Below are positions 4,504 through 27,993 of a DNA stretch of 64,000 nt, piece by piece (the first letter of the stretch is position 1; each line of letters starts with the position of its first letter). The notes beneath the pieces are model-generated. The model had not been told where the DNA came from and made no database searches. It saw nothing but the letters and a program-made list of their open reading frames with translations. This DNA comes from a virus: positions 1 to 64,000 of the IMG/VR virus record IMGVR_UViG_3300049893_002454; one strand, 5' to 3'. A program made the position numbers and the translations under genes.

Positions 4504-4964
4504 TAAAGTTAAACTTAGGGTGCGGAGCCGAGATACTAGATGAATTCATCAATATAGACTTCATCCACACGGCCGGAGTGAATCTCTTACACGATTTAAA
4601 TAAGCCCCTGCCATTTAAAGATAACTATGCAGATTTCATATTGGCTAGTGACGTTTTAGAACATTTTCCCTCATCAAAGTATTCTAAGATTTTAGCTGAT
4701 TGGGTTAGAGTATTAAAACCAGGTGCGGAAATTCATATAAGAGTTCCTAATATTGAGTTGATTTGCGAAAAGATACACAAGCAACTTTTGCCAGCTAAAG
4801 CTTTAATCGAATTATTATATGGCGGACAAGACAGTCCTGGTAATTTTCATTATAATGGATTCACAAAGCCGCTCCTTATAGATGCAATAAAGTCGGCAGG
4901 ATGTAGAGAAATATGTAGAATATGGGATTCAGATCATAATACAAATGTGGTGGCAAAAAAATGA
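4500..4964 (+). CDS. Class I SAM-dependent methyltransferase
   Basis: KLNLGCG, DVLEH, RVLKPG. Confidence 0.85.
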   Translation: MIKLNLGCGAEILDEFINIDFIHTAGVNLLHDLNKPLPFKDNYADFILASDVLEHFPSSKYSKILADWVRVLKPGAEIHIRVPNIELICEKIHKQLLPAKALIELLYGGQDSPGNFHYNGFTKPLLIDAIKSAGCREICRIWDSDHNTNVVAKK

Positions 4965-6474: not shown

Positions 6475-6476
6475 TC

Positions 6477-11712: not shown

Positions 11713-11720
11713 GTGATTTT

Positions 11721-12518
11721 ATGTTTAATAATGGTAAGTGGGAAAGTCCAAGTGTAGTGATGTATTGTCAGATAGGCAGATCACTGGATATGGCTGAATT
11801 TTCTATAAAGAGAGCAATTGAAAACTCCGGACTTAGAGATGATGAATTCGACATTGTGTTTATTTGCTGGAAAACGTCCCCAGAGGTTTATAACTGGTTA
11901 AATGCAAATAACTATAAGTATGTAGATATGGAATATGACGAAGGCAAGGGATTTCTATGGAATCTCTATAAGGGCTGGAATTTAGGATATGAAGTTGGAT
12001 TTCAATATGCTCCCTACGTTTGTCCAATTGCAACAGATCACTCATTTGCGCCAAATTGGTTAGCAAACATGCTAAAGCATGCTAAAGAAAACAGAATTGT
12101 AAATTGTAAACTTATAGAACCCGGAACTCTGCCGACATTGCATACAGCAATTAATTTTGGAGTCACATTAGATGGGCAATTTAACGAATCTGAATTCATG
12201 AAATTTGCGGCTGATCATTGTAATAAATATAATAATGTTTTAGAAACAAATGAGAGATCTTATGGTCATAGGTTTGATGCTATGCCGTTTATCTGTCCAA
12301 AAGATGTGTGGCAAAGATTTGGTCCTATGAGTCAGGTGCTAGTCAATGGCAGTCCAGACCCAGAGCATATATTTGTTAATTCAGTAACAGGCGATACTCA
12401 TTTCTTTAATTGTTGTAAGGCGGGTGGAGTACAAGTTGTAAAAGCCATGGATGCGGTTAGTTACCACTGTGGAGGCCTAGAGACCAGAAGGGGCGCTAGT
12501 GAAAATAGGTACACATAA
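11721..12518 (+). CDS. Putative GT2-like glycosyltransferase, paralog of 8335..9063
   Basis: Shares WN.G, F..NWL.N.LKH, IV..[RK]LIE.G, NFG, GD..FF and YH motifs with 8335..9063. Confidence 0.6.
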   Translation: MFNNGKWESPSVVMYCQIGRSLDMAEFSIKRAIENSGLRDDEFDIVFICWKTSPEVYNWLNANNYKYVDMEYDEGKGFLWNLYKGWNLGYEVGFQYAPYVCPIATDHSFAPNWLANMLKHAKENRIVNCKLIEPGTLPTLHTAINFGVTLDGQFNESEFMKFAADHCNKYNNVLETNERSYGHRFDAMPFICPKDVWQRFGPMSQVLVNGSPDPEHIFVNSVTGDTHFFNCCKAGGVQVVKAMDAVSYHCGGLETRRGASENRYT

Positions 12519-13186
12519 TGCTTACATTTACAACAAATACATATAATAATGTAGAATATACAATAATCGTACCATCATGTCGCCCCCATTTTGTAAGTGA
12601 TATTAAGTCATCCTTACAGGGATTTAACATCAATCACTTCGATGGGACAGGATATCCATCATCAGCAAAGCTAACAAATGACGTAATAATTAACTGTCCC
12701 ACTGAAATAGTATTTATAAATCAGGATAAGTGTAGAGGAAGTGCAGAGCAAATATATATATGCCTGGATTATATCAATGCTGGCTACGGAATGGCATGGC
12801 TATGGCCATTTGGATTCGGATGTTTTAAAAAAGATGTAATAAGAAGAGTAGGGTTTTTTGAAGAGAGATGCGCGGGCGGTCAATGGGATGACAGTGATAT
12901 GATCAGGCGTTTAAAGGAAGCTGACATAGGAGCAGTCATGCTTCACTCGACACAGAGGATACAGTTAAATACCCTATGGCGCCCGCATGAATCAGAGGTA
13001 TTTTTTAAGAAAAAATGGATTGGACCTGGGGAGATGATTAGAAATCTTGGCGAGATGGATTATCATTATAATATAGGCGCTTACCAAGGTAGTCAATTTA
13101 GGCCATGGAAGGATTCAATTGTCGATGCGCATCCGCCATCCTCTGATGAGCAAAATTCAAAATACAGAAAAGCCCTTGGTTTATAA
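12518..13186 (+). CDS. Putative GT2-like glycosyltransferase
   Basis: IIVPS, RRVGFFEER..GGQWDDSD. Confidence 0.6.
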   Translation: MLTFTTNTYNNVEYTIIVPSCRPHFVSDIKSSLQGFNINHFDGTGYPSSAKLTNDVIINCPTEIVFINQDKCRGSAEQIYICLDYINAGYGMAWLWPFGFGCFKKDVIRRVGFFEERCAGGQWDDSDMIRRLKEADIGAVMLHSTQRIQLNTLWRPHESEVFFKKKWIGPGEMIRNLGEMDYHYNIGAYQGSQFRPWKDSIVDAHPPSSDEQNSKYRKALGL

Positions 13187-13198
13187 CAAAGAGGCATT

Positions 13199-13996
13199 AT
13201 GATTATAGGGATTGTTGGGTTAGGAGTAGTGGGTAGTGCTATAAAGTACGGATTTGAAAAGCTTGGCCATACAGTACTAGGACATGACCTTAAGTTAGGT
13301 ACACATCTGTCAGAATTATTAACATCTGAAGTAATATATATATGTGTACCTACACCATCAAATAATACAGGGGCGTGTAATACAACAATAGTTGAATCTG
13401 TAGTAGATGAACTACATGCTCTTGACTATTCAGGTACAATAGCAATAAAATCAACTGTGTCCCCAGGAACAACACAGGCACTAATAAACAAATATAAGAA
13501 TAATAAAATATGCTTTATTCCAGAATTCTTACGCGAAAGGGCGGCCACCACAGACTTTACAGAAAATCATGACTTATGCGTTATTGGTACGTTAGAAGCT
13601 CAGCAATTTGAAGTAATTAGACAAAGTCATGGCTCATACCCTAAGAAGATAATGCAAACTTCTCCAACAGAGGCAGAACTAGTCAAATATTTCAATAATA
13701 TATATAATGCTACACTAATAACATTTGCAAATAGCTTTTATGAAGTATGCAAGTCATTAGATGTTAATTATAGTAATGTCAAGAATGCCATTGTAAATAG
13801 AGAGCATATTACAGACATATATCTTGATTGTAATGATAACTTTAGAGGCTTTGCTGGCGTATGCCTGCCGAAAGATCTGGCGGCCATAAGACATCTCTGT
13901 GAAGAGCGAGGTCTTGATGTTTCATTTTTTAAAAACATAGAAGATGAGAACAATAGATATAGCCCTACCGTTTTTGATGGCATGAGGTTGTGCTAA
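13199..13996 (+). CDS. UDP-glucose/GDP-mannose dehydrogenase family protein, short form lacking the C-terminal domain
   Basis: GLGVVG, ICVPTP, IKSTV, PEFLRE, AELVKY, GFAGVCLPKD. Confidence 0.85.
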   Translation: MIIGIVGLGVVGSAIKYGFEKLGHTVLGHDLKLGTHLSELLTSEVIYICVPTPSNNTGACNTTIVESVVDELHALDYSGTIAIKSTVSPGTTQALINKYKNNKICFIPEFLRERAATTDFTENHDLCVIGTLEAQQFEVIRQSHGSYPKKIMQTSPTEAELVKYFNNIYNATLITFANSFYEVCKSLDVNYSNVKNAIVNREHITDIYLDCNDNFRGFAGVCLPKDLAAIRHLCEERGLDVSFFKNIEDENNRYSPTVFDGMRLC

Positions 13997-14434
13997 GTGC
14001 TTCTTATATCGCATAGAGGTAATATCGGTGGCATCGATAAGTCGGCAGAGAATAATCCAGAACGAATCAGCAAGTTAATTGGTGGCGGAATCTCTGTAGA
14101 GATTGATGTTTGGTATGTAGATAATAAATTTATGCTAGGTCACGACGCTCCAGAGTACCATATTACAGCAGATTTTATTAAAAGTAGCGGCTTATGGTGC
14201 CATGCTAAGAACATCATGGCGATGACTAAGTTAAAAGAGCTGAATGTAGAGCACTTCTTCTGGCATGAACAGGATGCAATTACATTAACATCTTGCGGTT
14301 TATTCTGGACATATCCCGGAATGGAGATAACTAAACATTCGATAATTGTGGCACTAAGTCCAGAAGATACACATCGCCTCATTAATTCTGATGTATACGG
14401 GGTATGTTCGGATTATATTGATAAATTTTGGTGA
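13997..14434 (+). CDS. PI-PLC/GDPD-like phosphodiesterase
   Basis: ISHRGN, AENNP, VEIDVW, LGHD, WCHAKN, GVCSDY. Confidence 0.7.
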   Translation: MLLISHRGNIGGIDKSAENNPERISKLIGGGISVEIDVWYVDNKFMLGHDAPEYHITADFIKSSGLWCHAKNIMAMTKLKELNVEHFFWHEQDAITLTSCGLFWTYPGMEITKHSIIVALSPEDTHRLINSDVYGVCSDYIDKFW

Positions 14435-14438
14435 GTTC

Positions 14439-15824
14439 ATGATTAAATTAGTAGCATTTGACCTTGATGGTGTATTAGTTGATGCAAAGGACATTCACTT
14501 CGAAGCATTAAATACGGCTCTGGCTGCAGTGGATCAAAAATTTCTTATTTCAGAAGAAGAACACTTGAGCATATTTGATGGACTACCTACAATCAAAAAA
14601 CTACAGATATTATCAGCACAAAGAGGATTACCTGTTAACCTCTATGAGCAAATCTCTTCGAATAAACAGGAAGAAACAATAAGAATAATGAGGAATAAAT
14701 TAACTATAAATAATAGATTAATAAATATTCTCAAGCAGCTTAAATCAGCAGGGATGCAGATATGCGTAGCATCCAATTCTATACGTAAGACAGTAGTAAC
14801 AGCACTAGTACATACTGGTCTTATAGAGCATATAGATTTCTTTCTTTCGAATCAAGATGTTATAAATGCAAAGCCGAGCCCAGAGATTTATCTAAAGTGC
14901 ATGATCGCTGCTGGTGTTGGCCCGGATGAGACTATTATTGTAGAAGATTCACCGGTAGGACAAAAGGCAGCAATCTCTTCAGGTGGACACCTATGTCCAG
15001 TAAAGAATTCAGACGACGTATCTTTAGATAAGATATCTAAGATATATCTTAATCTGAATAAAAATACTAAGAAAAAGTGGACGGACAGTGAGTTAAATAT
15101 TATTATTCCCATGGCCGGACAGGGCTCTAGGTTTGAAAAGGCTGGATATGCTTTTCCAAAACCATTAATAGATGTTATGGGCAAACCAATGATTCAAATG
15201 GTCGTGGAGAACTTAAATATAAATGCAAACTATATATATGTAGTTAGGAAAGAACATTATGATAAGTATAATCTTCAATATATGCTTAATCTGATTACAC
15301 CAAATTGCAAAATTGTGTTAGTGGATCAGATAACGGAAGGGGCGGCCTGTACTGTATTGCTAGCAAAAGATCATATAAATAACGACAACCCATTATTACT
15401 TGCAAATTCAGATCAATATGTTGAGTGGGATAGCTCAGAATTTCTATATTCAATGAATTCATCTTCAGTAGATGGCGGCATACTAACATTTACCGCAGTC
15501 AGCCCGAAGTGGTCTTTTGTTAAACTTGATGAACATGGATATGTATCAGAAGTAGCTGAAAAGAAGCCGATCAGTAATATAGCGACGTGCGGCATTTATT
15601 GGTTCAGAAAAGGCAGTGATTTCGTATCTGCGGCCGAAAATATGATGTATAAAAATATAAGAGTGAATAATGAATTTTATGTCTGCCCTGTATTTAATGA
15701 GATGATAGAGTGTGGTAAAAAAATTAAGACCAATCATATAAACAACATGTGGGGAACAGGAACGCCGGAAGACCTAAGCTCATTTATATCAAATTATGAT
15801 AAAATATTTCGAAACGCTACATAG
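14439..15824 (+). CDS. HAD phosphatase fused to sugar nucleotidyltransferase
   Basis: FDLDGVLVD, KPSPE, IVEDS; then IPMAGQGSRF, PKPLIDV, GTGTPEDL. Confidence 0.88.
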   Translation: MIKLVAFDLDGVLVDAKDIHFEALNTALAAVDQKFLISEEEHLSIFDGLPTIKKLQILSAQRGLPVNLYEQISSNKQEETIRIMRNKLTINNRLINILKQLKSAGMQICVASNSIRKTVVTALVHTGLIEHIDFFLSNQDVINAKPSPEIYLKCMIAAGVGPDETIIVEDSPVGQKAAISSGGHLCPVKNSDDVSLDKISKIYLNLNKNTKKKWTDSELNIIIPMAGQGSRFEKAGYAFPKPLIDVMGKPMIQMVVENLNINANYIYVVRKEHYDKYNLQYMLNLITPNCKIVLVDQITEGAACTVLLAKDHINNDNPLLLANSDQYVEWDSSEFLYSMNSSSVDGGILTFTAVSPKWSFVKLDEHGYVSEVAEKKPISNIATCGIYWFRKGSDFVSAAENMMYKNIRVNNEFYVCPVFNEMIECGKKIKTNHINNMWGTGTPEDLSSFISNYDKIFRNAT

Positions 15825-16911
15825 AGAGCGCTGTGCTATTTGCAGTTCACTAGAACTAAATGATATTAGCGAAATCAGAAATGTTCCTATATATATGGGA
15901 GTGACGACAGGGTGCGATGATCTTACATCGGATCTTAGGTTTGCCAAGTGCTGCGTATGTAATACAATCCAGATATCTGGTTTGGTACCACCAGATATTT
16001 TATATAGTAAAAATCATAATGTAGACATAGTTGGCGCTAAGTGGAATAGACACTTTAAGGAATTAAGTAAATTAATATCTGAAGAGCTTGACACTTCTGA
16101 TATTCTTGAAGTTGGCGATCCATCGGCTAAAATCGCTTCTATATGTGATCATGACAAGTGGACTATAGTTGAGCCAAATCCAGACGAAGCAAAATGTTAT
16201 AATAATGTCGTCTTTATTAAAGATATAATAGAAAATGTCGAAGGCGGGAATTTTTCTGGTGTTGTACTAAGTCACGTGCTCGAACACGCAGTTGAACCAC
16301 TTCAACTATTGAAGCATATACGAACACTTATGAGATCAGAGGCGAAACTGTGTATCTCTATACCGAATATGAGCGAATTCGTAGTCAACCGACAACTTCC
16401 TCCACTAGGTATGCATTTTGAACATACGTTCTTTTTAGATATAGAAAGACTAACATACATGTTGGAGGCTTCTGGTTTTAAGATAAGGACTATGAGGCAA
16501 TTTGAAGAACATTCAATGTTTATAATTGCAGATAAATCAGAGGCAACAGACAATATGACGATATCATCAGACTTTTCTACAGAGCTGGTAAAGATAATAG
16601 ACGACTATCGGGCGTTAGTCAATAGTATAAATTATAAGATAAATAACAAGAAGCATATATTTTTGTACGGGGCACATATAATGGCGCAAATGTTGCTATC
16701 ACTAGGATTAAATGGGGATAATATTGAATGCATACTTGATAACTCTACTTCAAAGATAGGACATAGGCTATATGGTACCAATCTGCATGTAAACTCGCCG
16801 TCTATATTACAAGGAATACGTACCCCAGTTGTAATTTGTCATATGGGACCGTATACAGACGAAATAAAATCTCAAATTATGCAAATTAACAAAGAGGTTA
16901 ATTTCTTATGA
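15796..16911 (+). CDS. Sugar C-methyltransferase-like SAM methyltransferase with N-terminal Zn-binding CxxC pairs
   Basis: CAIC/CCVC, ILEVG, HVLEH, FEH, LYGA, ILDN..KIG. Confidence 0.8.
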   Translation: MIKYFETLHRERCAICSSLELNDISEIRNVPIYMGVTTGCDDLTSDLRFAKCCVCNTIQISGLVPPDILYSKNHNVDIVGAKWNRHFKELSKLISEELDTSDILEVGDPSAKIASICDHDKWTIVEPNPDEAKCYNNVVFIKDIIENVEGGNFSGVVLSHVLEHAVEPLQLLKHIRTLMRSEAKLCISIPNMSEFVVNRQLPPLGMHFEHTFFLDIERLTYMLEASGFKIRTMRQFEEHSMFIIADKSEATDNMTISSDFSTELVKIIDDYRALVNSINYKINNKKHIFLYGAHIMAQMLLSLGLNGDNIECILDNSTSKIGHRLYGTNLHVNSPSILQGIRTPVVICHMGPYTDEIKSQIMQINKEVNFL

Positions 16912-17624
16912 GATTAGCCTGCATCATAAGCATGTATGACGAGCATCAATTAGTGCTCTCTACATTGAATAGCATTTTAAAACACTTTATAAATCCAGAG
17001 ATAATAATAGTGCACTCAGACAATGGCACAATATTATCTACTAGTGCTGCGGTCACATATATTAAATTACCTAATATAGCAACAACTGTTACGGCATCGA
17101 GATTGCCATCATATTCAATTACAAGAAACTTTAGTACAGGATTTTCTAATTTATATGAAAAAGGTAAAGAGTATGATATGATTGTAGCCATGACTGGCGA
17201 TACGTTAGTTACAGATGCGAGTTCATTTAATCGCAGATATGCTGATCTTGCAGCTGGAAAATTTTATGCTGCAGTATCACAAGCTGTGGGTCAGCGCTTT
17301 CATGCCAGCACAGACGATCCTGATGCCGGTCGGACATGCGGAAGGATTCAGCATAATAATACGACAGACTTCGCATGCTGTTTATTCCTAGTAGATGGGG
17401 AATTTGCCAATAAAACTAAGGTATTTTCATCGATTAAGGTAACAAATGAGTTCTCCTCAGAACAGTGCCTAGGAGATGAGCTTATGTCGGCAATGGGGGT
17501 CTCTAGCAATGAAGAGTTTCACACACGTGTGTATAGATTGAATAACAGCACGCCTCATATAGCTTACTCATACAATGACGGGGTAGTATATCATGCGCGC
17601 ACAGGCGGACGTCCAGGGAGATAA
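16908..17624 (+). CDS. Putative GT-A fold glycosyltransferase
   Basis: IISMYDE, IIIVHSD, MTGD; operon context. Confidence 0.5.
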   Translation: MRLACIISMYDEHQLVLSTLNSILKHFINPEIIIVHSDNGTILSTSAAVTYIKLPNIATTVTASRLPSYSITRNFSTGFSNLYEKGKEYDMIVAMTGDTLVTDASSFNRRYADLAAGKFYAAVSQAVGQRFHASTDDPDAGRTCGRIQHNNTTDFACCLFLVDGEFANKTKVFSSIKVTNEFSSEQCLGDELMSAMGVSSNEEFHTRVYRLNNSTPHIAYSYNDGVVYHARTGGRPGR

Positions 17625-17625
17625 T

Positions 17626-18648
17626 ATGAAGGTTATAGTTACTGGCTCTCAGGGTTTTATAGGCAGTTATATATGTAATGAGTTATTAAATACTGGATAT
17701 AATGTTATAGGTATTGATAACTATAGCAAATATGGGCAAATCGTACGCTCACATGATGTACATCCAAATTTTAAGTTATACCACTCTGATGTAAGACATA
17801 TACATGAAAATATACGATCAGAACTATATAATGATATTCTAGACTCAGATTTTATAATTGCCGGAGCAGCACTCATAGGCGGCATCTCATATTTTCACGA
17901 GAAGGCATTTGATTTACTGGCAACAAACGAAGAGATATTAGCATCGACATTTAGAGCGGCCATAGATCTACATAAGTATCATAATCTTAAAAGGATAGTG
18001 GTCATATCGAGCAGTATGGTATTTGAGCAAACCTCCAAATACCCTACTCCAGAAAGCGAAGTGCTTACCTGCCCACCGCCGCTATCAACGTATGGTTTTC
18101 AAAAGCTATCCTCAGAATACTTCTGCAAAGGTGCCTGGGAGCAATATAAGTTGCCATATACGATTGTAAGACCGTTTAATTGCATTGGACTTGGCGAGAC
18201 GAGAGCGTTAGGGGCGCATGAAATCTCGCATGGCAATACAACCCTAATGCTCAGCCACGTGCTCCCAGACTTAATTAATAAGGCACTTAAGCTCTCTCCT
18301 TCAGACTCGCTTCCAATCCTCGGCTCTGGCAATCAAGTCAGGCACTACACTCATGGAAGGGATATCGCTAGAGGAATCCGGATTGCCATGGAATCAGGAG
18401 CGGCTGAGAACAATGATTTTAATATCTCACACAGCAGACCAATGACAGTATTGGAGCTTGCCGAGATAGTGTGGAAGAGAGTGCATGGCACTGAATTGAA
18501 GGTAAGCCATCAGCCGGCATATGAGTATGATGTGCAGATCCGCAGCCCAGACGTTACTAAGGCGAGGGATATTCTGGGTTTTTCTGCAGAAATAGATGTT
18601 GAAGATAGCATAGATGAAATTATCGACTGGATGAGGAAGAACCTGTGA
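17626..18648 (+). CDS. NAD-dependent epimerase/dehydratase (extended SDR)
   Basis: VTGSQGFIG, SSSMV, YGFQK, RPFN. Confidence 0.9.
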   Translation: MKVIVTGSQGFIGSYICNELLNTGYNVIGIDNYSKYGQIVRSHDVHPNFKLYHSDVRHIHENIRSELYNDILDSDFIIAGAALIGGISYFHEKAFDLLATNEEILASTFRAAIDLHKYHNLKRIVVISSSMVFEQTSKYPTPESEVLTCPPPLSTYGFQKLSSEYFCKGAWEQYKLPYTIVRPFNCIGLGETRALGAHEISHGNTTLMLSHVLPDLINKALKLSPSDSLPILGSGNQVRHYTHGRDIARGIRIAMESGAAENNDFNISHSRPMTVLELAEIVWKRVHGTELKVSHQPAYEYDVQIRSPDVTKARDILGFSAEIDVEDSIDEIIDWMRKNL

Positions 18649-18998
18649 AAATATCAGAATTAATTGATAACCATATTCTTGAAGCAATAGATAAATTTGA
18701 CGGCGACTACTCGCTAAACAATCCATTTGAGGAGCTGATTAGCTTCGGAGAATTAGTCGACAGACTTTCAGTTGTGAATTTTAAATTATTTAAACTAAAA
18801 GACGAAGTGATGATGAGGCCTGATGATCAGGACTTCCGTGGTTGGGCTTCAATTGAAGATGTTAAGTTATGTAAGGAACGCTCGCGTCTGAAGCGATGCA
18901 TAGATGAGAAGTTAGCATCCATGATGGTTAGAGTTCGTGATGGAGACCCGTCAGCAGGACATAATTCCGAAACGAAATTATATGGGAGAGAAGTATGA
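18645..18998 (+). CDS. Small helical protein (DUF4254/DUF6165-like) of sugar clusters
   Basis: SFGELVDRLSVVNFK and ERSRLKRCID motifs. Confidence 0.5.
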   Translation: MKISELIDNHILEAIDKFDGDYSLNNPFEELISFGELVDRLSVVNFKLFKLKDEVMMRPDDQDFRGWASIEDVKLCKERSRLKRCIDEKLASMMVRVRDGDPSAGHNSETKLYGREV

Positions 18999-19951
18999 AC
19001 ATATCAGTGCCTACAAGAATTTTAATAGTTGGAGGCCTAGGATATATAGGCGGATATTTAACAGATTATCTTATAGAGCATGGATATGACATTACGGTCT
19101 ATGATAATATGTTATTTGAAGACAGGTATTTGAAAAATACTAAATTCATATATGGAGATATAAGAGATAGCGGTAAATTAGCTGCTGTCATTAATAACTT
19201 CGATGTGGTAGTTTGGCTTGCGGCTATTGTCGGTGATGGTGCGTGTGCCGTTGATGTTAAACTAACTAAGGAAATCAATACCGATACGGTAAAATGGTTA
19301 ACTGATAATTATTCTGGTAAGATTATTTGGGCAAGCACATGCTCAGTATATGGTCGAAATGACGAACTATTAACAGAGGAATCTCCGCTCGCTCCGCTCT
19401 CGGCATACGCAGAGTCGAAGCTAGAGGCAGAAAAATACCTGCTGTCCAAACGCCAGGATGCTCTAGTATTCAGGCTGGGAACATTATTCGGAGTAGGAGA
19501 TGAACATAGTCGTCTCAGACTTGATTTGGTAGCAAATATACTTTCTATGAAAGCATCAAGAGGAGAGGAGCTTAGTGTATTTGGCGGAGAGCAGTGGAGG
19601 CCACTACTGCATGTTCGCGATGTAAGCACAGCTATTGCTCATTGTCTAAAGAATAGTATATCGGGATTATACAATTTATCATATGGTAACTTTAAACTTT
19701 CAGAGATCGCAGAGCAGATTGTAGCGATGATCCCAGGAGCTACATTGAAATACTCAGATCTTCCATTTGAGGATCAAAGAAACTATCGGGTTACAAATGA
19801 TAAGATACTAGCCACAGGATGGAAGCCTACGTATAATTTAGAATTTGGCGTAAAGCAGATACAAAGTGTAATACAAGATAACCGCATTAAGAATACCTCT
19901 GATCCGATTTATTCGAATGCGGCATATATAAAGCAGATTGGGTCATTTTAA
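18995..19951 (+). CDS. NAD-dependent epimerase/dehydratase
   Basis: GGLGYIG, LAAIVGD, STCSVYG, YAESK, RPLLHVRD. Confidence 0.9.
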   Translation: MNISVPTRILIVGGLGYIGGYLTDYLIEHGYDITVYDNMLFEDRYLKNTKFIYGDIRDSGKLAAVINNFDVVVWLAAIVGDGACAVDVKLTKEINTDTVKWLTDNYSGKIIWASTCSVYGRNDELLTEESPLAPLSAYAESKLEAEKYLLSKRQDALVFRLGTLFGVGDEHSRLRLDLVANILSMKASRGEELSVFGGEQWRPLLHVRDVSTAIAHCLKNSISGLYNLSYGNFKLSEIAEQIVAMIPGATLKYSDLPFEDQRNYRVTNDKILATGWKPTYNLEFGVKQIQSVIQDNRIKNTSDPIYSNAAYIKQIGSF

Positions 19952-19969
19952 CCTATAAATAGGTGGTGT

Positions 19970-20431
19970 ATGAATATTCTAGATGGCAAGATACATGTTG
20001 ATAATCGCGGCTCTCTTCGCGTAGTTCCTGATTTTAATCCAAGCACCTTGAATATTAAAAGAATGTACCAGGTTGAGAATAATCCGTTGTGTGAAATACG
20101 TGCATGGCACGGCCACCTAGAAGAGGAAAAGTATGTATATTGCGCGCGGGGTTCGGCAATCATTGCCGCCATACATATGGGGACCGATGATGTCTTTATG
20201 CCATCTATCAGTCAATCAAGAGGTGCATCGGCACCACAGACGCTGGTGCTATCAGCATTACAGCCAAGAGTAATACATATTCCAGCAGGAATGGCAAATG
20301 GGTTTAGGATGCTCGAACCAGGGACGATATTGCTATTCTACTCCACTTCAACTCTAGAGGAAAGCAAGGGCGACGACTATAGATTTCCTCTAGATGATCA
20401 TGATGAAACATTTAAAATAGAGGTTAGATGA
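19970..20431 (+). CDS. RmlC/FdtA-like cupin sugar epimerase or isomerase
   Basis: DNRGSL, RAWHGH, IPAGMANGF. Confidence 0.8.
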   Translation: MNILDGKIHVDNRGSLRVVPDFNPSTLNIKRMYQVENNPLCEIRAWHGHLEEEKYVYCARGSAIIAAIHMGTDDVFMPSISQSRGASAPQTLVLSALQPRVIHIPAGMANGFRMLEPGTILLFYSTSTLEESKGDDYRFPLDDHDETFKIEVR

Positions 20432-21282
20432 TGAAAACGGTTTTAATCTTAGGTGGCACCGGCATGCTTGGTAATGCTGTAGGAAAATATTTTCAGGCAC
20501 ATCAAGACAAATACGACACCTATCTAACTACAAGAGATATGTCATTGATTTATAGCAAGTCAAATAACTGGATTAAGTTCGACCCCACAGGAAAGATACT
20601 TGACGCATCACACGCATTACGCGATGTATTTGAATATATGCCAAGAAACCCTGATATTATAATTAATTGCATAGGTGTCATAAAGCCATTCATGGCTAAG
20701 AACAAACGTGAGAGCATTCTAATCAACGCACTTCTGCCACACTTGTGGGCAGAAGACTCATTAGCTCTAAATATTAAATTTCTACATATAACCTCAGATT
20801 GCGTATTTAGTGGTGCAAAGGGTAACTATGTAGAGAGTTCACTGCACGATGCGCTTGATGATTACGGCAAGAGTAAGAGTTTAGGAGAGCCGGTAGACAA
20901 TGCTATGGTTATACGCACGTCAATTATAGGTCCAGAGATACATAAGCAGGCGTCATTAGTTGCATGGGCACAAAGCCAAGCAGGGAAAGAGGTATCTGGA
21001 TTTACTAATCATTTATGGAATGGAATTACCTGCAAGCAGTATGCGATAGTATGTAGCAAGATTATCGACAATGATCTGTATGAACAAGGATTATTTCATG
21101 TACATTCTGATATAGTAAACAAAGCAGAGCTCTTGCAGATGATAGATTATCGATACAATCTAGGACTAAAGATCATCCATGTACCTGCACAAACACATAT
21201 AGATAGGACGATGGCAACAGAAAAGTCATTGCTACACAAGTTACACATTCCTATGTTAAAAGATCAAATTCAATCACTGTGA
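20428..21282 (+). CDS. RmlD-like dTDP-4-dehydrorhamnose reductase family SDR
   Basis: GGTGMLG, SDCVFSG, YGKSKSLGE, RTSIIG. Confidence 0.85.
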   Translation: MMKTVLILGGTGMLGNAVGKYFQAHQDKYDTYLTTRDMSLIYSKSNNWIKFDPTGKILDASHALRDVFEYMPRNPDIIINCIGVIKPFMAKNKRESILINALLPHLWAEDSLALNIKFLHITSDCVFSGAKGNYVESSLHDALDDYGKSKSLGEPVDNAMVIRTSIIGPEIHKQASLVAWAQSQAGKEVSGFTNHLWNGITCKQYAIVCSKIIDNDLYEQGLFHVHSDIVNKAELLQMIDYRYNLGLKIIHVPAQTHIDRTMATEKSLLHKLHIPMLKDQIQSL

Positions 21283-21494
21283 TGTATTTGATATATATAT
21301 CAATGATTAATTTTCATATTCTGCTATCAGATATACCTTATATTATTTCATCTTCTCTGTGTCACAGAATCAGCAAAGTATTGCTTATATTTAATAATAT
21401 GTTAGGTTAGATAACCTAGGAGTTCTGTGGTCTCTAAGCTATCTAGTACTATGGATCATAGTATCTATCACATCTATATAGCAAAAGGTGGCAA

Positions 21495-21692
21495 ATGATG
21501 TCTCATGCGGTAGTTTATTGGTATGGTGGGGTTTCTAGGGCTTATAGGGTTTCTAGGGCTTCTGGTGCTTATGGGACTTCTAGGGCTTCTGGTGCTTATG
21601 GGGCTTCTAGGGTTTCTGGGGTTTCTGGGGATTCTGTGGATTCTGTGGCCTCTGGGGCTTCTAGGGCTTCTAGGGCAAGAGGTGGTAGATGA
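21495..21692 (+). CDS. Ser-rich tripeptide-repeat micropeptide 1 (65 aa)
   Basis: AGGTGG SD-like motif upstream; MMSHAVVYWYGG leader; (x-S-x)n; RGGR stop overlapping the next ATG. Confidence 0.55.
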   Translation: MMSHAVVYWYGGVSRAYRVSRASGAYGTSRASGAYGASRVSGVSGDSVDSVASGASRASRARGGR

Positions 21693-21916
21693 TGTCTCAT
21701 GCGGTAGTTTATTGGTATGGTGGGGCTTCTAGGACTTATAGGGTTTCTTGGGTTTATGGTGATTCTGGGGGCTTCTGGGGGGCTGCTAGGGCTTCTGGTG
21801 CTTATGGGGCTTCTAGGGTTTCTGGGGCTTCTATGGCTTCTGTGGATTCTGTGGCCTCTGGGGCTTCTAGGGCTTCTAGGGCTTCTAGGGCTTCTAGGGC
21901 AAGAGGTGGTAGATGA
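21689..21916 (+). CDS. Ser-rich tripeptide-repeat micropeptide 2 (75 aa)
   Basis: Same leader and tail as copy 1; ATGA overlap at both ends. Confidence 0.55.
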   Translation: MMSHAVVYWYGGASRTYRVSWVYGDSGGFWGAARASGAYGASRVSGASMASVDSVASGASRASRASRASRARGGR

Positions 21917-22146
21917 TAGCTCATGCGGTAGTTTATTTTTACTCTTTGTCTTATGGGGACTCTGTGGCTTCTATGGTTTCTGGGTCTTCTAGGACTTCTA
22001 GGGTTTCTGTAGTTTCTAGGGTTTCTAGGAATTCCGAGGCTTCTTGGGCTTCTGGGGCTTCTAGGATTTCTAGGATTTCTGTGGTTTCTAGGGTTTCTGT
22101 GGTTTCTGTGACTTCTTGGGCTTCTGTAGTAAGGGGCGGCAGATAA
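21913..22146 (+). CDS. Ser-rich tripeptide-repeat micropeptide 3 (77 aa)
   Basis: MIAHAVVYFY leader; RGGR tail; ATGA overlap with copy 2. Confidence 0.55.
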   Translation: MIAHAVVYFYSLSYGDSVASMVSGSSRTSRVSVVSRVSRNSEASWASGASRISRISVVSRVSVVSVTSWASVVRGGR

Positions 22147-22230
22147 TATCTCATGCTGTAGCTTTTTTGGTATAGTAGTATTCTTCGGTTTCTTGGGCTA
22201 TATAGGCATTATACTTAGCAGTGGTGACAG
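22143..22230 (+). pseudogene. Degenerate fourth micropeptide copy
   Basis: ATAATATCTCATGCTGTAGCTTTTTTGGTAT resembles the leader, with ATG changed to ATA and an extra T leading to an early stop. Confidence 0.45.
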
Positions 22231-23343
22231 ATGATGTGCAATCATGTGGTTGTAGAATGTGGTCCAGTAATAATTGGAGCTGGGGCGATAGGCCTTGCCA
22301 TCGCGGCTGAATTATCTAAAAGACATACAGATATCGTGGTCCTAGAAGCTGAAGTCGGACCCGGACATCATACAAGCAGCAGAAACAGTGAAGTAATCCA
22401 TTCAGGAATATATTATCCTCACCACAGTCTAAAATCAATGCTGTGCTTGTCAGGGAAACATTTACTATATTCCTATCTAGCAGATAGAAATATTCCGTAT
22501 ATTAAATGTGGAAAACTTATTGTTGCTCAAGACTCATCTGCCGAGATTGACTCGTTAGAGAATCTAAGGCAAAATGCTAATTTAGTCGGAGTACAATATC
22601 AGCTAGTTACACACAAAAGTGCTGGGATTAAAGATCTACCACTTAAGCCATGTGAAGCTCTTCTTGTACCCGACACCGGACATATGGACGCTCATACGCT
22701 GATGCGTTCACTGGAACAAGATATTGTTAATAATAATGGCACTGTAGCATATAACTCAATGGTTACAGAGATTGAGCAGTCCGGTAGTGGTTGGTTAATT
22801 TCAGTTAGTAGCAGCACTCCCTTTAAGATAAGGACTGAGTGCATTATAAATTCAGCCGGACTATTTGCCGATAAAATTGCTGGCATGGTTGGCATAGATA
22901 AGTATAAAATATATTTTTATAAAGGCGAATATTATCGCACCAATAAGATGCGGGCATTAAAACATCTAGTCTATGCCGTTCCTCCAGCAGATCAAATGTC
23001 GCTCGGAATACATACAAGACACTATATGGATAACTCTATAGGATTTGGCCCAAATGCCTATCCGGTAGACAATATAGATTATAATATTGACGAGTCACAT
23101 AAGCATGAGTTTATTAATGACATAAATAAATATTTTACTGTCGACATCAGCTCGTCAGAGATATATCCTGACTATGCTGGCATTAGACCAAAGATCAATG
23201 GAGGAGGCATCAAGTCCGACTTTATTATTGAAAAAGAACAGTGTGACGGAGATAGAACAATGATTTCTTTAATTGGCATAGAAAGTCCTGGATTAACGTG
23301 CTCGATGTCTATAGCGCAATACGTAGCAGATATGTTAGCATAA
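22231..23343 (+). CDS. FAD-dependent oxidoreductase, L-2-hydroxyglutarate oxidase (LhgO)-like
   Basis: IIGAGAIG, TSSRNSEVIHSGIYY, KGEYY, AGIRPK, GIESPGLT. Confidence 0.88.
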   Translation: MMCNHVVVECGPVIIGAGAIGLAIAAELSKRHTDIVVLEAEVGPGHHTSSRNSEVIHSGIYYPHHSLKSMLCLSGKHLLYSYLADRNIPYIKCGKLIVAQDSSAEIDSLENLRQNANLVGVQYQLVTHKSAGIKDLPLKPCEALLVPDTGHMDAHTLMRSLEQDIVNNNGTVAYNSMVTEIEQSGSGWLISVSSSTPFKIRTECIINSAGLFADKIAGMVGIDKYKIYFYKGEYYRTNKMRALKHLVYAVPPADQMSLGIHTRHYMDNSIGFGPNAYPVDNIDYNIDESHKHEFINDINKYFTVDISSSEIYPDYAGIRPKINGGGIKSDFIIEKEQCDGDRTMISLIGIESPGLTCSMSIAQYVADMLA

Positions 23344-23357
23344 ATATACAATATATT

Positions 23358-23540
23358 ATGAGATGCGATATTTGTGATGAAAAGCTAGATGAGCGTGACA
23401 TTATAGACAGTCAGCTACTGCACTGTTGGAAGTGCGGCTTCAAACGTCAGTTATCCGACGCAGAAATTTCCATATATATCACTCCAACATTTGGATACAC
23501 TGAGTGGGAGCCTGATATATCATATATGTATGAGATATAA
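23358..23540 (+). CDS. Small Zn-ribbon protein
   Basis: CDIC...CWKCG; fills the gap between genes. Confidence 0.5.
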   Translation: MRCDICDEKLDERDIIDSQLLHCWKCGFKRQLSDAEISIYITPTFGYTEWEPDISYMYEI

Positions 23541-23541
23541 C

Positions 23542-23895
23542 ATGACATTTCCTCTTAACATTACTAAAGTAGCTATTAATAAGTTAATCGCAGCCAAAGA
23601 GGGCGATGGTTTGAATGATAGCTTCTTTATACGCATATCAGTTAAGGGCGGCGGTTGCTCTGGTTTGCTGAATGAATTGGCCTTTGATAGTGAATTAGAT
23701 CAAGATGATGATATAGCTGAGCGGTTCTCGGCAGACGATAAAAGTATAAAGGTTGCGATAGACTCATTTTCTGCAATGTATATGAGTAACGTTACCCTAG
23801 ATTATGTCATTGAGGATATGCAAGAAGGGTTTAAGTTTTCTGGCGGGGGCGCTACGCGAAGGCACTGTGCATGCGGCTCTTCGTTCAAAGAATAG
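23542..23895 (+). CDS. A-type Fe-S carrier (IscA/ErpA/HesB family)
   Basis: VKGGGCSG, LDY, GFKF, CACGSSF. Confidence 0.9.
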   Translation: MTFPLNITKVAINKLIAAKEGDGLNDSFFIRISVKGGGCSGLLNELAFDSELDQDDDIAERFSADDKSIKVAIDSFSAMYMSNVTLDYVIEDMQEGFKFSGGGATRRHCACGSSFKE

Positions 23896-23932
23896 CTTGC
23901 GCCATATCTAGACAAGTAACTTCAAATAGAAG

Positions 23933-24271
23933 ATGAGGCATAATATGTCATTTACGTTAACAGAAAGCGCAATAGCTAAGATAAATTCTCTTTTAAATGA
24001 GCGTAATGATGTTCCAAATAATGTGCGCATAGGTCTGCGAAGCGGCGGATGTAAGGGAATTGAGCAGATTATAGAGATCGGGGTGCCGGAAGTGAAAGAG
24101 GATCATTTATATGACTGCAATGACTTCCGTGTGTACGTCGATAAGAAGAGTCAAATATTACTAACTGGAGTAAAGATAGAATGGAGAGCAACGCTATCAG
24201 AAAGTAGATTTGTTTTCCATTTTCCAGACAATAAAACTTCGTGTTCCTGCGGCAAGAGCTTTTCATTATGA
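23933..24271 (+). CDS. A-type Fe-S carrier (IscA/HesB family), second copy
   Basis: LTESA, SGGCKG, VDKKS, CSCGKSF. Confidence 0.9.
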   Translation: MRHNMSFTLTESAIAKINSLLNERNDVPNNVRIGLRSGGCKGIEQIIEIGVPEVKEDHLYDCNDFRVYVDKKSQILLTGVKIEWRATLSESRFVFHFPDNKTSCSCGKSFSL

Positions 24272-24783
24272 TATTGGCCGATGATGAGTTGCCACTAATA
24301 CCATCAGAGTTAGTGTCGCACGATGAGGTTGAAGATCTGATCAATAAGCTAGAAAGCGAACTATTATCTAGCTCGGTACCGGGAATAGGACTAGCGGCAT
24401 GTCAAATAGGAATATTTAAGCAAGCGTTTATCATACGCATTTCAGAGTTACATAGCTATAACTTTATAAATCCAAAAATCATATCGCTATCAGATCCCGT
24501 GATCTACAAATCAGAAGGTTGCCTATCATATCCAGGAGTAACTATACGCTCTTTGAGATATTATAATGTTACTATAAGTGATGATTTAAATCCAACTAAT
24601 GTCTCATTAAGTGGGTTGCCAGCTATTGCGGCTCAGCACGAGTATCAGCACATTTTAGGTCACAACATGTTTAAAAATTCGCTGACTAATATCACAGACT
24701 CGCAAGTATGCTTATGCGAGTCGGGATTGACGTTTGCGAAATGTTGCAAAATAAAGATACGTAAAAACATACGTATAATATGA
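24268..24783 (+). CDS. def: Peptide deformylase with C-terminal SEC-C-like motif
   Basis: GIGLAACQIG, EGCLS, QHEYQH; tail CLCESGLTFAKCC. Confidence 0.88.
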   Translation: MILADDELPLIPSELVSHDEVEDLINKLESELLSSSVPGIGLAACQIGIFKQAFIIRISELHSYNFINPKIISLSDPVIYKSEGCLSYPGVTIRSLRYYNVTISDDLNPTNVSLSGLPAIAAQHEYQHILGHNMFKNSLTNITDSQVCLCESGLTFAKCCKIKIRKNIRII

Positions 24784-24816
24784 CAATCATACAAACCTTT
24801 AAAGCTAGAGTAAGAA

Positions 24817-25248
24817 ATGAAAGTAATGGTTCTAAATAAACTATTGTCATCTGAGCGTGTTTTTGGCATACGGTTTCCATATCCACCAATATCACTGCCG
24901 ACGAACGTTTCCAATGTCATATGTCATCCAGAATTAGCCACTAGATTACACTATACTACTATAGTGCTATTGTCTGATAGGGACAATGAGCCTGCTATAT
25001 TTGAATTTTCTCAAGAAATCTTCGACGGCCTAGCAGCATACGGACAGAGACATCATGGGTTGCAGTCAATAGAAGTTCTTATATCAAGAGATGATATTAG
25101 CAATAAACTACGTATAAAGGTCGGGGCCTCCTCTACAGCTACAGAGGTAGAGGAGATGCAGTTATCGGCAAGCAAATATCAATACATATATGATGGATTG
25201 TACAATAAGTATTTGTCTAAAATCGGCAAAAAGCTTTACGATATATAA
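24817..25248 (+). CDS. Hypothetical protein, weakly similar to the SSB at 53298
   Basis: DRDNEPAIFEFSQEIF resembles NRERGRVQLVEFGKQVY. Confidence 0.5.
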   Translation: MKVMVLNKLLSSERVFGIRFPYPPISLPTNVSNVICHPELATRLHYTTIVLLSDRDNEPAIFEFSQEIFDGLAAYGQRHHGLQSIEVLISRDDISNKLRIKVGASSTATEVEEMQLSASKYQYIYDGLYNKYLSKIGKKLYDI

Positions 25249-25261
25249 TTAGGAGAGTAAT

Positions 25262-26893
25262 ATGAGTTCAAAGATGATTGAGTTTGGTGAAACTTCGAGA
25301 GATTTAATTGCTAGTGGGGTGCGCACTTTAGCTAGGGCAGTGGCATGTACACTAGGTCCGCGAGGTAGGAATGTAGTTTTGCAAAGACCGGGGATGCCTC
25401 CACATGTTACCAAAGATGGAGTGAGCGTTGCACGAGAGATTTCCTTAAAAGATCCATTTGCTAATATGGGTGCACAAATGGTAAAAGAGGTGGCATCTCG
25501 TACGGCAGATCTTGCTGGAGATGGCACTACCACTGCAACAGTACTGGCAGATGCTATTGTTACAGAAGGACTTCGTCTAATTGTTGCCGGACATGATCCA
25601 ATGCCAATTAAGCGCGGGATTGATAAGGCTACAGATGCAATCGTGGAAGAGTTAAAGAAGCTCAGTAAGCCAGTAGATGATCTTAAAGAGATTGAGCAAG
25701 TTGCTACTATTTCAGCAAATGGAGATGCATCTATCGGCAAGATGATTGCTTCAGCTATGGATGTAGTTGGTAAAGATGGTGTCATTACGCTAGAAGAAGG
25801 AAAGGGATTCGAATCCACAGTTCGCTCAGCCGAAGGGTTTGAGTTCGATCGTGGCTTTTTATCAGCCCACTTCTGTAATGATAAGGAGAGGCAGCGCGTA
25901 GTTTTCGAAAAGCCGGTGCTATGGTTGATCAATAGCAAGCTAACCAGTTCAGTAGATATGGAAGAGATGCTTCCATTATTCCAACACTGTAGTCGCAATA
26001 AGCAACCACTAGTTATTATAGCGGACTCTGTAGAGGGAGAGGTGCTCGGTACCATGGTAGTGAACTCATTACGCAATTCTCTTGTATGTGCTGCAGTAAG
26101 AGCTCCTGGTTTCGGAGATGCTAAGAAGGAGATGATGGAAGATCTGGCGATTCTTACTGGCGCTCAAATTAAAGAAATTGGTCTAGAATCGAGACTGATG
26201 GATACACAGTTTACGGATCTTGGAACAGCAGAGCGAATTATTATTACTAGAGAAAAGACAGTTATTGTCGGTAAAAGTGGTACTGAGGACGCCATACAGC
26301 AGCGCGCTTCGCAAATTCGTCAAGAACTTGCACGGACAACTGACTTCCATGCTCGAGATGTGCTAAATAAGCGCCTGGCGAAGCTTATTGGCGGAATCGC
26401 GGTGATCGAGGTTGGTGCAGCAACAGACATCGAGATGAAGGAGCGCAAGGACCGCTTTGAGGATGCTCTTGCTGCCACAAGAGCCGCTATTCAAGAAGGG
26501 ATAGTTCCCGGTGGAGGGGTGGCTCTCGTACGCGCTTCCACTACCTTAGGTGCGTTTTCAACAGGAAATGCGGAAGAGGATATTGGAGTAAAGATCGTAC
26601 TGAAGGCATGCGCTGCCCCACTTATGCAGATAGTCTCAAATGCTGGAAAATCACCGGAGGTTGTGCTGGATAGAGTCAAGTCTGAATCATCTAGCGCATA
26701 TGGTTATGATGCCGCTACTCATGAATATCGCGATATGTTACAAGCAGGTATTATAGACCCGGCACAGGTTACTAGAGTCGCTATACAAAATGCTGCTAGT
26801 ATTAGCTCATTGATTTTAACCACCGAAGCCGTGGTAGCGTTTGAAGAAAGTGATAACAATAAATCTACATCACTCAATTCAATGATGCAATGA
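25262..26893 (+). CDS. groEL: Chaperonin GroEL
   Basis: TLGPRGRNV, TKDGV, GDGTTTATVLA, APGFGD, GIVPGGG; AGGAG SD. Confidence 0.97.
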   Translation: MSSKMIEFGETSRDLIASGVRTLARAVACTLGPRGRNVVLQRPGMPPHVTKDGVSVAREISLKDPFANMGAQMVKEVASRTADLAGDGTTTATVLADAIVTEGLRLIVAGHDPMPIKRGIDKATDAIVEELKKLSKPVDDLKEIEQVATISANGDASIGKMIASAMDVVGKDGVITLEEGKGFESTVRSAEGFEFDRGFLSAHFCNDKERQRVVFEKPVLWLINSKLTSSVDMEEMLPLFQHCSRNKQPLVIIADSVEGEVLGTMVVNSLRNSLVCAAVRAPGFGDAKKEMMEDLAILTGAQIKEIGLESRLMDTQFTDLGTAERIIITREKTVIVGKSGTEDAIQQRASQIRQELARTTDFHARDVLNKRLAKLIGGIAVIEVGAATDIEMKERKDRFEDALAATRAAIQEGIVPGGGVALVRASTTLGAFSTGNAEEDIGVKIVLKACAAPLMQIVSNAGKSPEVVLDRVKSESSSAYGYDAATHEYRDMLQAGIIDPAQVTRVAIQNAASISSLILTTEAVVAFEESDNNKSTSLNSMMQ

Positions 26894-27993
26894 TCTATCT
26901 TGATCATAATTCGGCCACCTATATCCTGCCTCATATATATAATGAATTGTCAGATAGTAAATTTATCGGTAATTCAAGTTCGTTACATGAGGCAGGGGCT
27001 TTATCTAAGAGCATAATAGACGATAGTAGCAAATCGATTGCTTCATTGATCGGCGTAAGCCACCATAATATACTATATACTAGTGGTGCCACTGAATCTA
27101 ATGCTATTGCACTGGAGTCATATAGGAAGGCAGGGTGCAGGATATTAGCTTCAGCGCTAGAGCATAAATCAGTCTCAGCATACGCACATGGTACTATACA
27201 AGTTACTGGCGATGGACACATAGACTTAGATCATGCTGAGTATATGATAGCTAAGCACAAAGAACATAGTGTAATACTAGCCTGTATGTATGCTAATAAT
27301 GAAACCGGTGTGATTTTAGATCATGACAGCAATCTCTTACATTTATGCATTAAACATGGAGCAAGGCTACATATCGATGCTTCACAATGCTACCCAAAAG
27401 GAGGACAGATCTCTAAGGAGCAAAGTGCTTATGCAAGTACCATTGTTCTATCTGGACATAAAATGCATGCTATGAAGGGAGTTGGATTGCTGGCCTTCAG
27501 TAACGACGCATTTGACTTACTAGAGCCTATTATGCTGGGGGGCGCCCATCAATGGGGATTGCGTCCAGGTACCATGAATACTGAAGCAATATATAGTCTT
27601 GGAGCTGCTGCCAGGTATGCACAATCAGATTTAAAACATACATATGATCAAATGCACGAGAAAATTAGCTATATAGAGGATAATTTATCAGATATATCTA
27701 CAGTCAATGGTGATATCAAGAATAGGTTATATAATACAACTAACCTATTTTTTCCAAAAGTGTGCGATTTGCAGATTTTTCTAGATAATTTATCTAAATC
27801 AAAGGTAATGATCTCTGGAATGAGTGCATGCGACTCAGGGCTATTAATCGGAAGTCCGTCATTATCGGCCATGTTTGGTTCAGGGTCAGAGCGTCTTAGT
27901 GGATCAATTAGAATTTCAGTAAGTGCAATGACAACATGGCAAGAGATTGAAGAAGCGACAGATATTATCAGAAAGATCGTCACAGAAATTTAA
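26890..27993 (+). CDS. iscS: Cysteine desulfurase (IscS/NifS family)
   Basis: IYLDHNSAT, SGATES, NNETG, SGHK (PLP Lys), MSAC (catalytic Cys). Confidence 0.9.
   Translation: MIYLDHNSATYILPHIYNELSDSKFIGNSSSLHEAGALSKSIIDDSSKSIASLIGVSHHNILYTSGATESNAIALESYRKAGCRILASALEHKSVSAYAHGTIQVTGDGHIDLDHAEYMIAKHKEHSVILACMYANNETGVILDHDSNLLHLCIKHGARLHIDASQCYPKGGQISKEQSAYASTIVLSGHKMHAMKGVGLLAFSNDAFDLLEPIMLGGAHQWGLRPGTMNTEAIYSLGAAARYAQSDLKHTYDQMHEKISYIEDNLSDISTVNGDIKNRLYNTTNLFFPKVCDLQIFLDNLSKSKVMISGMSACDSGLLIGSPSLSAMFGSGSERLSGSIRISVSAMTTWQEIEEATDIIRKIVTEI

Follow-up and report, generated by a model that had tools for sequence, protein, structure and literature searches.

Micro-ORFs between the rmlD-like and lhgO-like genes

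The window analyzed here is a stretch of 64,000 nucleotides, the first 64 kb of the 125,545-bp IMG/VR virus record IMGVR_UViG_3300049893_002454, which is 34% complete according to CheckV. Between its rmlD-like and lhgO-like genes lies an array of three very short open reading frames (ORFs) whose bodies are built from a 9-bp repeat. On the sequence comparisons described below, we consider it slightly better than an even bet (roughly 0.55) that these ORFs are micro-genes of an orphan family, born from repeats and coupled in translation, which encode hypervariable, basic and disordered peptides. The locus includes the following features.

21495..21692, plus strand: micro-ORF 1, 65 amino acids, 16 nonamers (family profile E 1.7e-20)
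21689..21916, plus strand: micro-ORF 2, 75 amino acids, 19 nonamers (family profile E 4.8e-26)
21913..22146, plus strand: micro-ORF 3, 77 amino acids, 20 nonamers, with a diverged F-type leader (family profile E 9.8e-22)
22129..22230, plus strand: decayed fourth unit (boundary alignment score 45, one gap)
22231..22251, plus strand: first seven codons of the lhgO-like gene, resembling a micro-ORF leader (boundary alignment and homologue comparison)
21528-21558, 21600-21630 and 21860-21890, sense strand: three canonical G-quadruplex motifs (regular-expression scan)
20428..21282, plus strand: rmlD-like gene, the upstream neighbour (Pfam RmlD_sub_bind, 1.7e-13)
21283..21494, plus strand: AT-rich spacer (GC 0.29) that opens a 948-bp block and carries the Shine-Dalgarno (SD) site of ORF1 at its 3' end
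22231..23343, plus strand: lhgO-like FAD oxidoreductase gene, the downstream neighbour (Pfam DAO, 1.8e-53)

An earlier note on this DNA had described three ORFs of 65 to 77 amino acids at this site, with a common leader, a body of x-Ser-x tripeptides and the same RGGR tail before the stop codon, and all of its sequence-level statements about them hold. Each unit starts with ATGATG or ATGATA just downstream of AAGGTGG or GAGGTGG, and ends with AGA-TGA, the TGA overlapping the next ATG. These ATGA overlaps are located at 21689-21692 and 21913-21916, with GAGGTG 3-4 bases 5' of each ATG. Both hallmarks of a translationally coupled array, namely stop/start overlap and an SD site inside the upstream ORF, are present; in micro-ORF 1, which consists of leader, nonamers and RGGR tail, the last codons contain the SD site of ORF2. 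The starts are spaced 194 and 224 bp apart, with another 230 bp to the decayed fourth start. All three distances are of the form 3n+2, as the earlier note had remarked, which follows from the ATGA overlap and restates the same fact.

The bodies consist of 55 nonamers (28 distinct) that follow the pattern RNT-TMT-NKG, and the exact unit and nonamer counts depend on the deposited assembly, as no single contig in four sequencing runs spans the array. At 21527-21900, Tandem Repeats Finder detects 40.7 copies of a 9-bp period, and at 21961-22127 it detects periods of 9, 18 and 27 bp. Unit 2 departs from the 9-bp register only through +1 and +2 insertions in G runs that are 10 bases apart, after which the frame is restored. 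Apart from the three G-quadruplex motifs listed above, neither strand of the 125.5-kb record contains a canonical one. Within the window, the choice of W or F at leader position 9 is a two-base difference, and only 4 of 56 bases distinguish the unit 1 boundary from that of unit 2. The fourth unit still has a recognisable boundary, but in it ATGATG has become ATAATA, a stop codon follows after 10 codons, and a few degenerate nonamers are left. The 3' end of this unit contains the SD site of the lhgO-like gene.

A family of related peptides

A profile made from the three window peptides only was used in an exhaustive search of 1.84 billion representative proteins. It matched four proteins from end to end: P0003 (62 amino acids, 1.2e-11), P0004 (68 amino acids, 1.8e-5), P0005 (56 amino acids, 1.6e-4) and P0006 (56 amino acids, 3.8e-4). 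A second search with the resulting seven-row profile added P0010 (44 amino acids, 1.8e-5) and P0011 (46 amino acids, 6.9e-4). Four further candidates (P0007, P0008, P0009 and P0012; the two from the first search at about 8e-4) were rejected as members, since they match the repeat only and carry neither leader nor tail.

The six homologues are hypothetical proteins from JGI, each on one contig of 47,627 bp, suggesting that they lie on a single metagenome contig and form a second array of at least six members. All six have a leader, an x-S-x body and a tail, and are 37-58% identical to ORF2. Their tails are of the R-G-[GD]-R type, and P0005 ends in R-S-V-R. The family consensus consists of the N-terminus M-[IM]-S-H-A-V-V-Y-[FW]-Y-G, an (x-Ser-x)n body and an R-G-[GD]-R end, with total lengths of 44-77 amino acids. 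All nine members have an isoelectric point of 9.0-11.7, lack Lys and carry Ser in one phase of three. The two leader types cross between arrays: the W-type leader of units 1 and 2 resembles that of P0010, and the F-type leader of unit 3 resembles that of P0003, with 10 of 11 residues matching in each case. Because both types recur in the second set, they appear to be older than the separation of the two arrays. The earlier note had proposed that broken frames in homologous loci would mark the array as a non-coding repeat; the frame is intact in the six full-length relatives found among predicted proteins.

Searches of other kinds returned no additional members. In IMG/VR, the leader DNA pattern hit 48 stretches, all of them chance matches of 16-22 bases; the body pattern hit 109, whose best alignments are at most 97 bases and cover no boundary; the tail/start pattern hit 102, with a longest match of 24 bases. 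The 13 body-pattern stretches that were inspected are mostly large repeat-protein ORFs in other registers. A peptide-pattern scan of IMG/VR based on the family alignment gave 15 stretches, none confirmed. Among 185,579 prokaryote genomes, the leader pattern has one match, within an ordinary cyanobacterial gene that lacks repeats. GenBank phages have no DNA match to the array and no tblastn match to ORF2, and a word-indexed protein search with ORF2 alone recovered no relative among 369 candidates.

Pfam and PHROGs contain no family for the three window peptides, and NCBIfam contains none for any of the nine members, the one match being a sub-threshold chance hit (12.5 bits, cut-off 600). AlphaFold2 run on a 7-row alignment predicts no confident fold (mean predicted local distance difference test score 47.8, predicted template modelling score 0.21), and the ESM Atlas holds no structural look-alike, its best scores of 0.76 and 0.83 being below the meaningful level. 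Titles and the opening parts of abstracts on phage minisatellites and on tandem small ORFs in jumbo phages mention nothing similar.

A leader-like start of the lhgO-like gene

Aligned locally with the unit boundary, the SD site and start of the lhgO-like gene agree with it at 26 of 34 positions and score 25, compared with 13.5 +/- 2.3 for shuffled sequences, of which 4 of 2000 reach 25. This start is the best of 119 gene starts when aligned to the unit boundary. The rmlD start comes second with a score of 23, because SD-ATGATG motifs are common. The window LhgO protein has nine residues before its C-G-P motif (M-M-C-N-H-V-V...), whereas all eight of its closest homologues have six. Those eight, which are 54-66% identical to the window protein, have the N-terminus M-x-[DE]-x-x-x and lack the leader-like SD-ATGATG module.

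In our reading, the final boundary of the array has become joined in frame to lhgO, where it would supply the SD site, the start codon and the first seven codons. Since a conserved enzyme gene would now depend on an array start module, the fusion argues that this module can initiate translation.

Searching the lhgO alignment against metagenomes gave only relatives at 47% identity or less. The closest LhgO homologues, P0013 and P0014, are located on contigs of 367,953 and 259,015 bp, an indication that public assemblies other than IMG/VR include near-complete genomes from this clade of phages.

A close relative that lacks the array

One close relative was found, the 142-kb record IMGVR_UViG_3300043177_000268 (loci L050/L051). 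Its RmlD-like, LhgO-like and GroEL proteins are 73%, 66% and 85% identical to those of the window. In this relative, the stop of the rmlD-like gene directly overlaps the start of the lhgO-like gene in a common ATGA, and the entire 948-bp block of spacer and array is missing. The relative has four genes of the glycosyltransferase (GT) island, a fifth in weakly matching form, the three rml-like genes and the whole stretch that begins with lhgO and ends with the aminotransferase gene. It lacks window positions 7547-18998, a 43-amino-acid ORF near the spacer and the array. Because a deletion that precisely recreates the ATGA overlap is unlikely, we infer an insertion or expansion in the lineage of the window rather than a deletion in the relative. 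No lhgO gene that could polarize this change as an outgroup was found in five more distant phage records.

The missing segment at 7547-18998 is a separate observation. These approximately 11 kb of the glycan island, with genes for GT2 and GT1 proteins, UDP-glucose dehydrogenase, a HAD/nucleotidyltransferase fusion, methyltransferases and several family-less ORFs, have no counterpart in the corresponding region of the relative, although the two phages share both ends of the island, with protein identities of 57-76%. Comparison of these close phages shows a mosaic glycan island.

Coding frame or repeat composition

The strongest competing explanation, which we consider possible but clearly less probable, is that the locus is a neutral or selfish compound minisatellite. 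A slippage-prone, G+T-rich 9-bp repeat would lie between copied translation-start modules, and the ORFs would be by-products. They would be proto-genes at most, their frames open through composition and the youth of the copies, and their peptides would have no selected role.

The earlier note had pointed out that no frame but this one spans each of the three units from one boundary to the next. That is correct, but its further step, that the open frame argues for selection, fails, because composition alone suffices to keep the frame open. Frame 1 is stop-free in 95% of 5000 simulated bodies (18 nonamers, observed position-specific composition), and in 73% of bodies simulated by uniform mutation from the consensus. 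Frame 1 can therefore be said to be open by construction.

Several other observations join this one in weighing against a family of selected micro-genes. Across nonamer positions 1-9, minor variants number 9, 22, 3, 1, 7, 1, 27, 13 and 6, or 37, 42 and 10 on codon positions 1, 2 and 3, counts that are non-independent because variant nonamers get copied (distinct position/base states split 5/5/4). The wobble position is the least variable, which is the opposite of ordinary purifying selection and is compatible with diversifying change, a constraint on the +2 frame or a constraint at the DNA level. The +2 frame has the more coding-like variant pattern, with invariant second codon positions. Codon use is atypical for the phage: TCT accounts for 50 of 51 Ser codons, AGG for 23 of 28 Arg codons and GGG for 15 of 28 Gly codons, compared with 22%, 13% and 12% in the long ORFs, and no tRNA genes are found in the 125.5-kb record. 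The array strand is rich in G and T (T 249, G 229, C 102 and A 86 of 666 nucleotides), and the amino acid make-up of the peptides may follow from this.

The same list includes a start codon that has been lost in one window unit and in one boundary among the run contigs. Searches by DNA, pattern and family profile, with the three ORFs of the window as positive control, found no array in the 142-kb relative and none in three further records of large phages. Eight candidate small ORFs gave no exact match in a collection of 15 billion proteins, whereas two of three control genes from the same record are present in it. Finally, only predicted proteins could be searched for the wider family, so that broken copies would have been invisible.

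Two alternative coding frames were tried and rejected. The +2 frame encodes hydrophobic L-L-G peptides in ORFs of 69 and 91 amino acids in units 1 and 2, but its unit 3 body has two stops, and the frame has no SD site and no look-alike. On the minus strand, frames switch register at every boundary, and the long ORFs of the window are all on the plus strand.

Contigs from sequencing runs, which provide DNA and not RNA evidence, bear on both readings. Of the sampled words, 90% occur in a freshwater-sediment run (X1). Flanking pieces that show no differences over 151-197 bases also turn up in three freshwater runs belonging to two other studies; one of these pieces, a contig of study X2, joins the fourth-unit remnant to the lhgO start with no differences in 151 bases. 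The array itself is represented in run X1 by 98 short contigs, of which 9 are at least 99% identical and 74 are below 95% identity, with several rearranged joints and new boundaries, as would fit a fast-evolving repeat. Array-like variants also occur in runs of three further studies. Two novel unit junctions (study P3 and run X1), translated by hand, stay in frame; in each, the tail reads R-G-x-[RK] and the TGA overlaps an ATGATG. No indel variants are listed among the run contigs over the array. Such contigs could come from variant strains or else from paralogous arrays, perhaps in the unsampled two-thirds of the genome.

The similarity to prokaryotic minisatellites, or variable number tandem repeat loci, lies in the short tandem repeat, the many variants and the rearranged joints in environmental contigs. 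A minisatellite would also account for the near-identity of the unit 1 and 2 boundaries, hence recent copies, for a 5'-to-3' gradient of decay that ends in the dead fourth unit, and for the lack of an array in the closest relative. Whole 9-bp indels are expected to keep the Ser phase whatever the selection. At this locus, however, the repeat is nested in units of about 200 bp with SD site, start and stop, it holds a three-codon register, and members with intact ORFs recur elsewhere. Six more full-length ORFs retain leader and tail although their bodies have diverged, and the same two leader types are found in both arrays. In addition, the diverged boundaries from runs of other studies keep the SD site, the ATG and the overlapping TGA, and the +1 and +2 insertions compensate each other. 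We therefore favour a real micro-gene family, because start, leader, tail with its SD site, and stop are conserved across arrays despite diverged bodies, and because lhgO appears to have co-opted an array start module.

A possible regulatory leader

A quite improbable alternative is that the array acts in regulation, wherein translation of AGG/TCT-rich upstream ORFs or G-quadruplexes in the mRNA would set the expression of the lhgO-like gene and of the Fe-S and chaperone genes. The array is located directly 5' of lhgO, whose start module appears to be array-derived, it contains 23 AGG codons (AGG is 13% of the Arg codons in the genes of the phage), and it harbors the record's only G-quadruplex motifs, all on the sense strand. 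Against this, ORF3 ends 85 bases before the lhgO start and so cannot be directly coupled to it, and the close relative has the same gene order without such an element. No lhgO homologue lies on a 47,627-bp contig among the best 120 matches, and the second array is thus probably not beside a close lhgO gene.

A structured RNA was considered as well and rejected. Folding is no better than expected from shuffled sequences (z -0.39, with 68 of 200 shuffles folding equally well), and the one Rfam match is below threshold, leaving no family.

Glycosylation and precursor-peptide readings

The earlier note raised a link to glycosylation, in which the peptides would be precursors like those of ribosomally synthesized and post-translationally modified peptides (RiPPs), or O-glycosylation acceptors of the neighboring GTs; every third residue (Ser) would then carry a sugar. 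We regard this reading as very improbable, and its support as positional and analogical speculation. On the positional side, the array closes a 20-kb glycan cluster, and the 11-kb segment that is missing from the array-less relative contains GT genes. The roughly ten neighboring GTs counted earlier reduce to 6 of 20 scanned upstream ORFs with a GT match in Pfam (E<=1e-4), the others including sugar-nucleotide enzymes. An obligatory link to glycosylation is disfavored because the relative retains its rml-like genes, lhgO and four genes of the GT island and has no array.

The conserved N-terminus and variable body, found in nine of nine members, do recall RiPP precursor arrays, in which several small tandem genes share a conserved N-terminal part and differ in the remainder. 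Here, in contrast, the conserved N-terminal segment is only 11 residues long, the body is a low-complexity repeat, and no maturation enzyme was found. A Pfam scan of about 40 ORFs between 2402 and 35703 returned sugar, Fe-S, chaperone and nucleotide enzymes only (seven upstream ORFs have no match), with no maturase, protease-transporter or peptide-specific GT family. No precursor-peptide model in Pfam, PHROGs or NCBIfam was matched either, and the RiPP analogy was not upheld. Moreover, the conserved peptide ends coincide with translation signals, which explain them as well as a leader/core architecture does; the encoded SD site accounts for conservation of the tail.

Serine-rich repeat glycoproteins are long secreted adhesins with a signal peptide, a cell-wall anchor and a dedicated export and glycosylation locus. 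The micro-ORF products differ in having 44-77 amino acids, an 11-residue N-terminus and no anchor, and Pfam scans found no such accessory genes.

A closer parallel is offered by the antifreeze glycoprotein (AFGP) genes of fishes. The published account (PMC6410882) describes a coding repeat that arose from a 9-nt, three-codon element amplified in the manner of a microsatellite; every third position is a hydroxyl residue, and the sequences that flank the repeat are conserved. The tripeptide repeat, the hydroxyl residue at every third position and the 9-nt repeat are all present in the array, with Ser in a single phase in nine of nine members. AFGPs differ in that they are secreted polyproteins of eukaryotes, with an established function and established glycosylation of Thr, whereas the micro-ORFs are separate, basic, Ser-based bacterial-type ORFs of 44-77 amino acids known from sequence alone.

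Phage GTs can act on the phage's own polypeptides, as in mycobacteriophage virion O-glycosylation (Freeman et al. 2023, as cited in PMC12619734). The acceptors in that system are the C-termini of capsid and tail-tube subunits, whereas the free micro-peptides would be candidate acceptors at most. The arrays might encode a hypervariable, Ser-periodic peptide repertoire, diversified through its repeats and either modified by neighboring GTs on every third residue or serving as diversified binders; such a system, which we consider improbable, would resemble AFGPs in its origin.

A diversity-generating retroelement was also tried as an explanation and rejected: the 125.5-kb record (34% complete) has no PF00078 reverse transcriptase, and the differences between units are not adenine-specific.

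Genomic setting and additional observations

The genome of this phage would be roughly 370 kb in size when extrapolated from the CheckV completeness. All non-nested ORFs of at least 100 amino acids in the window are on the plus strand, and 4-base overlaps with a neighbor are common. PHROG matches in the window include DNA polymerase, an SbcC-like nuclease, a terminase-like ATPase and GroEL. The glycan-biosynthesis cluster occupies about 20 kb (2402-21282), with the array at its end. Besides its GT genes, the cluster codes for GDP-mannose dehydratase, UDP-GlcNAc 2-epimerase, UDP-glucose dehydrogenase, the HAD/nucleotidyltransferase fusion, methyltransferases and three rml-like proteins.

On the 3' side of the array are genes for a DAO/LhgO-type oxidoreductase, whose homologues are labelled L-2-hydroxyglutarate oxidase in their sources, two Fe-S assembly proteins, peptide deformylase and GroEL. 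Genes for a class-V aminotransferase, a GMP-reductase/IMPDH-type enzyme, NUDIX and ClpP follow further 3'. The region 23491-27993 is made up of host-like housekeeping genes within a phage, all conserved in the close relative. It includes the two Fe-S proteins, which are of the IscA/HesB type, GroEL, the class-V aminotransferase, which is cysteine-desulfurase-like, and the peptide deformylase, which has a C-terminal SEC-C motif.

A consensus scan of the plus strand of the AT-rich spacer found no sigma-70-like promoter and no terminator, with nothing above shuffled sequences, and the spacer has no motif in common with 19 other intergenic gaps. Because the long ORFs are all on the plus strand and no terminator was found nearby, read-through transcription across the array is plausible. 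The spacer contains a perfect hairpin (21447-21463) with a 7-bp stem and a 3-base loop, about 30 bases 5' of the first SD site. It also holds most of the ORF of 43 amino acids (21279-21410), which is AT-rich and hydrophobic, and whose GTGATG start overlaps the rmlD-like stop. This ORF has no family and no homologue in the close relative, and it may be spurious or a leftover of an earlier gene junction.

Two observations concern other parts of the window. Between the adjacent ORFs at 57529-57972 (147 amino acids) and 57986-58585 (199 amino acids), the 22 bases 5' of the start are identical, as are the first two codons, pointing to a gene that was recently duplicated in tandem. In the 1551-amino-acid DNA-polymerase ORF (47378-52033), polymerase PHROGs match the C-terminal half, and a PHROG of unknown function matches the first 460 residues.

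Proposed model and implications

The last six codons of each ORF contain the SD site of the next, and if the ORFs are indeed micro-genes, ribosomes would terminate and then restart at each TGA/ATG overlap along the array. Slippage and the duplication of units would lengthen, shorten and diversify the bodies, always in steps of three codons. The outcome would be variable, arginine-based and lysine-free peptides, rich in Ser, Gly, Ala, Val and Tyr and without a predicted fold. The cassette is located between the rmlD-like and lhgO-like genes in this phage lineage, where its last boundary would now supply the lhgO start. Both translation of the ORFs and selection on the peptides are presumed in this model. 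Translation signals, more than any function of the peptides, may account for the conserved ends, and nucleotide composition may drive the make-up of the bodies. As for function, our guess, weakly held, is that the peptides bind polyanions such as nucleic acids non-specifically. Acceptance of glycans is a less likely role.

If the peptides are not made, the locus serves as a caution that repeat composition alone can yield perfect-looking arrays of coupled ORFs. If they are made, the array would be a clear case in a prokaryotic virus of genes born and diversified from a three-codon repeat, with a built-in coupling module that makes new copies translatable at once and that has even been co-opted by a neighboring enzyme gene. 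The peptides would then constitute a new family in the poorly charted small-protein content of large phages.

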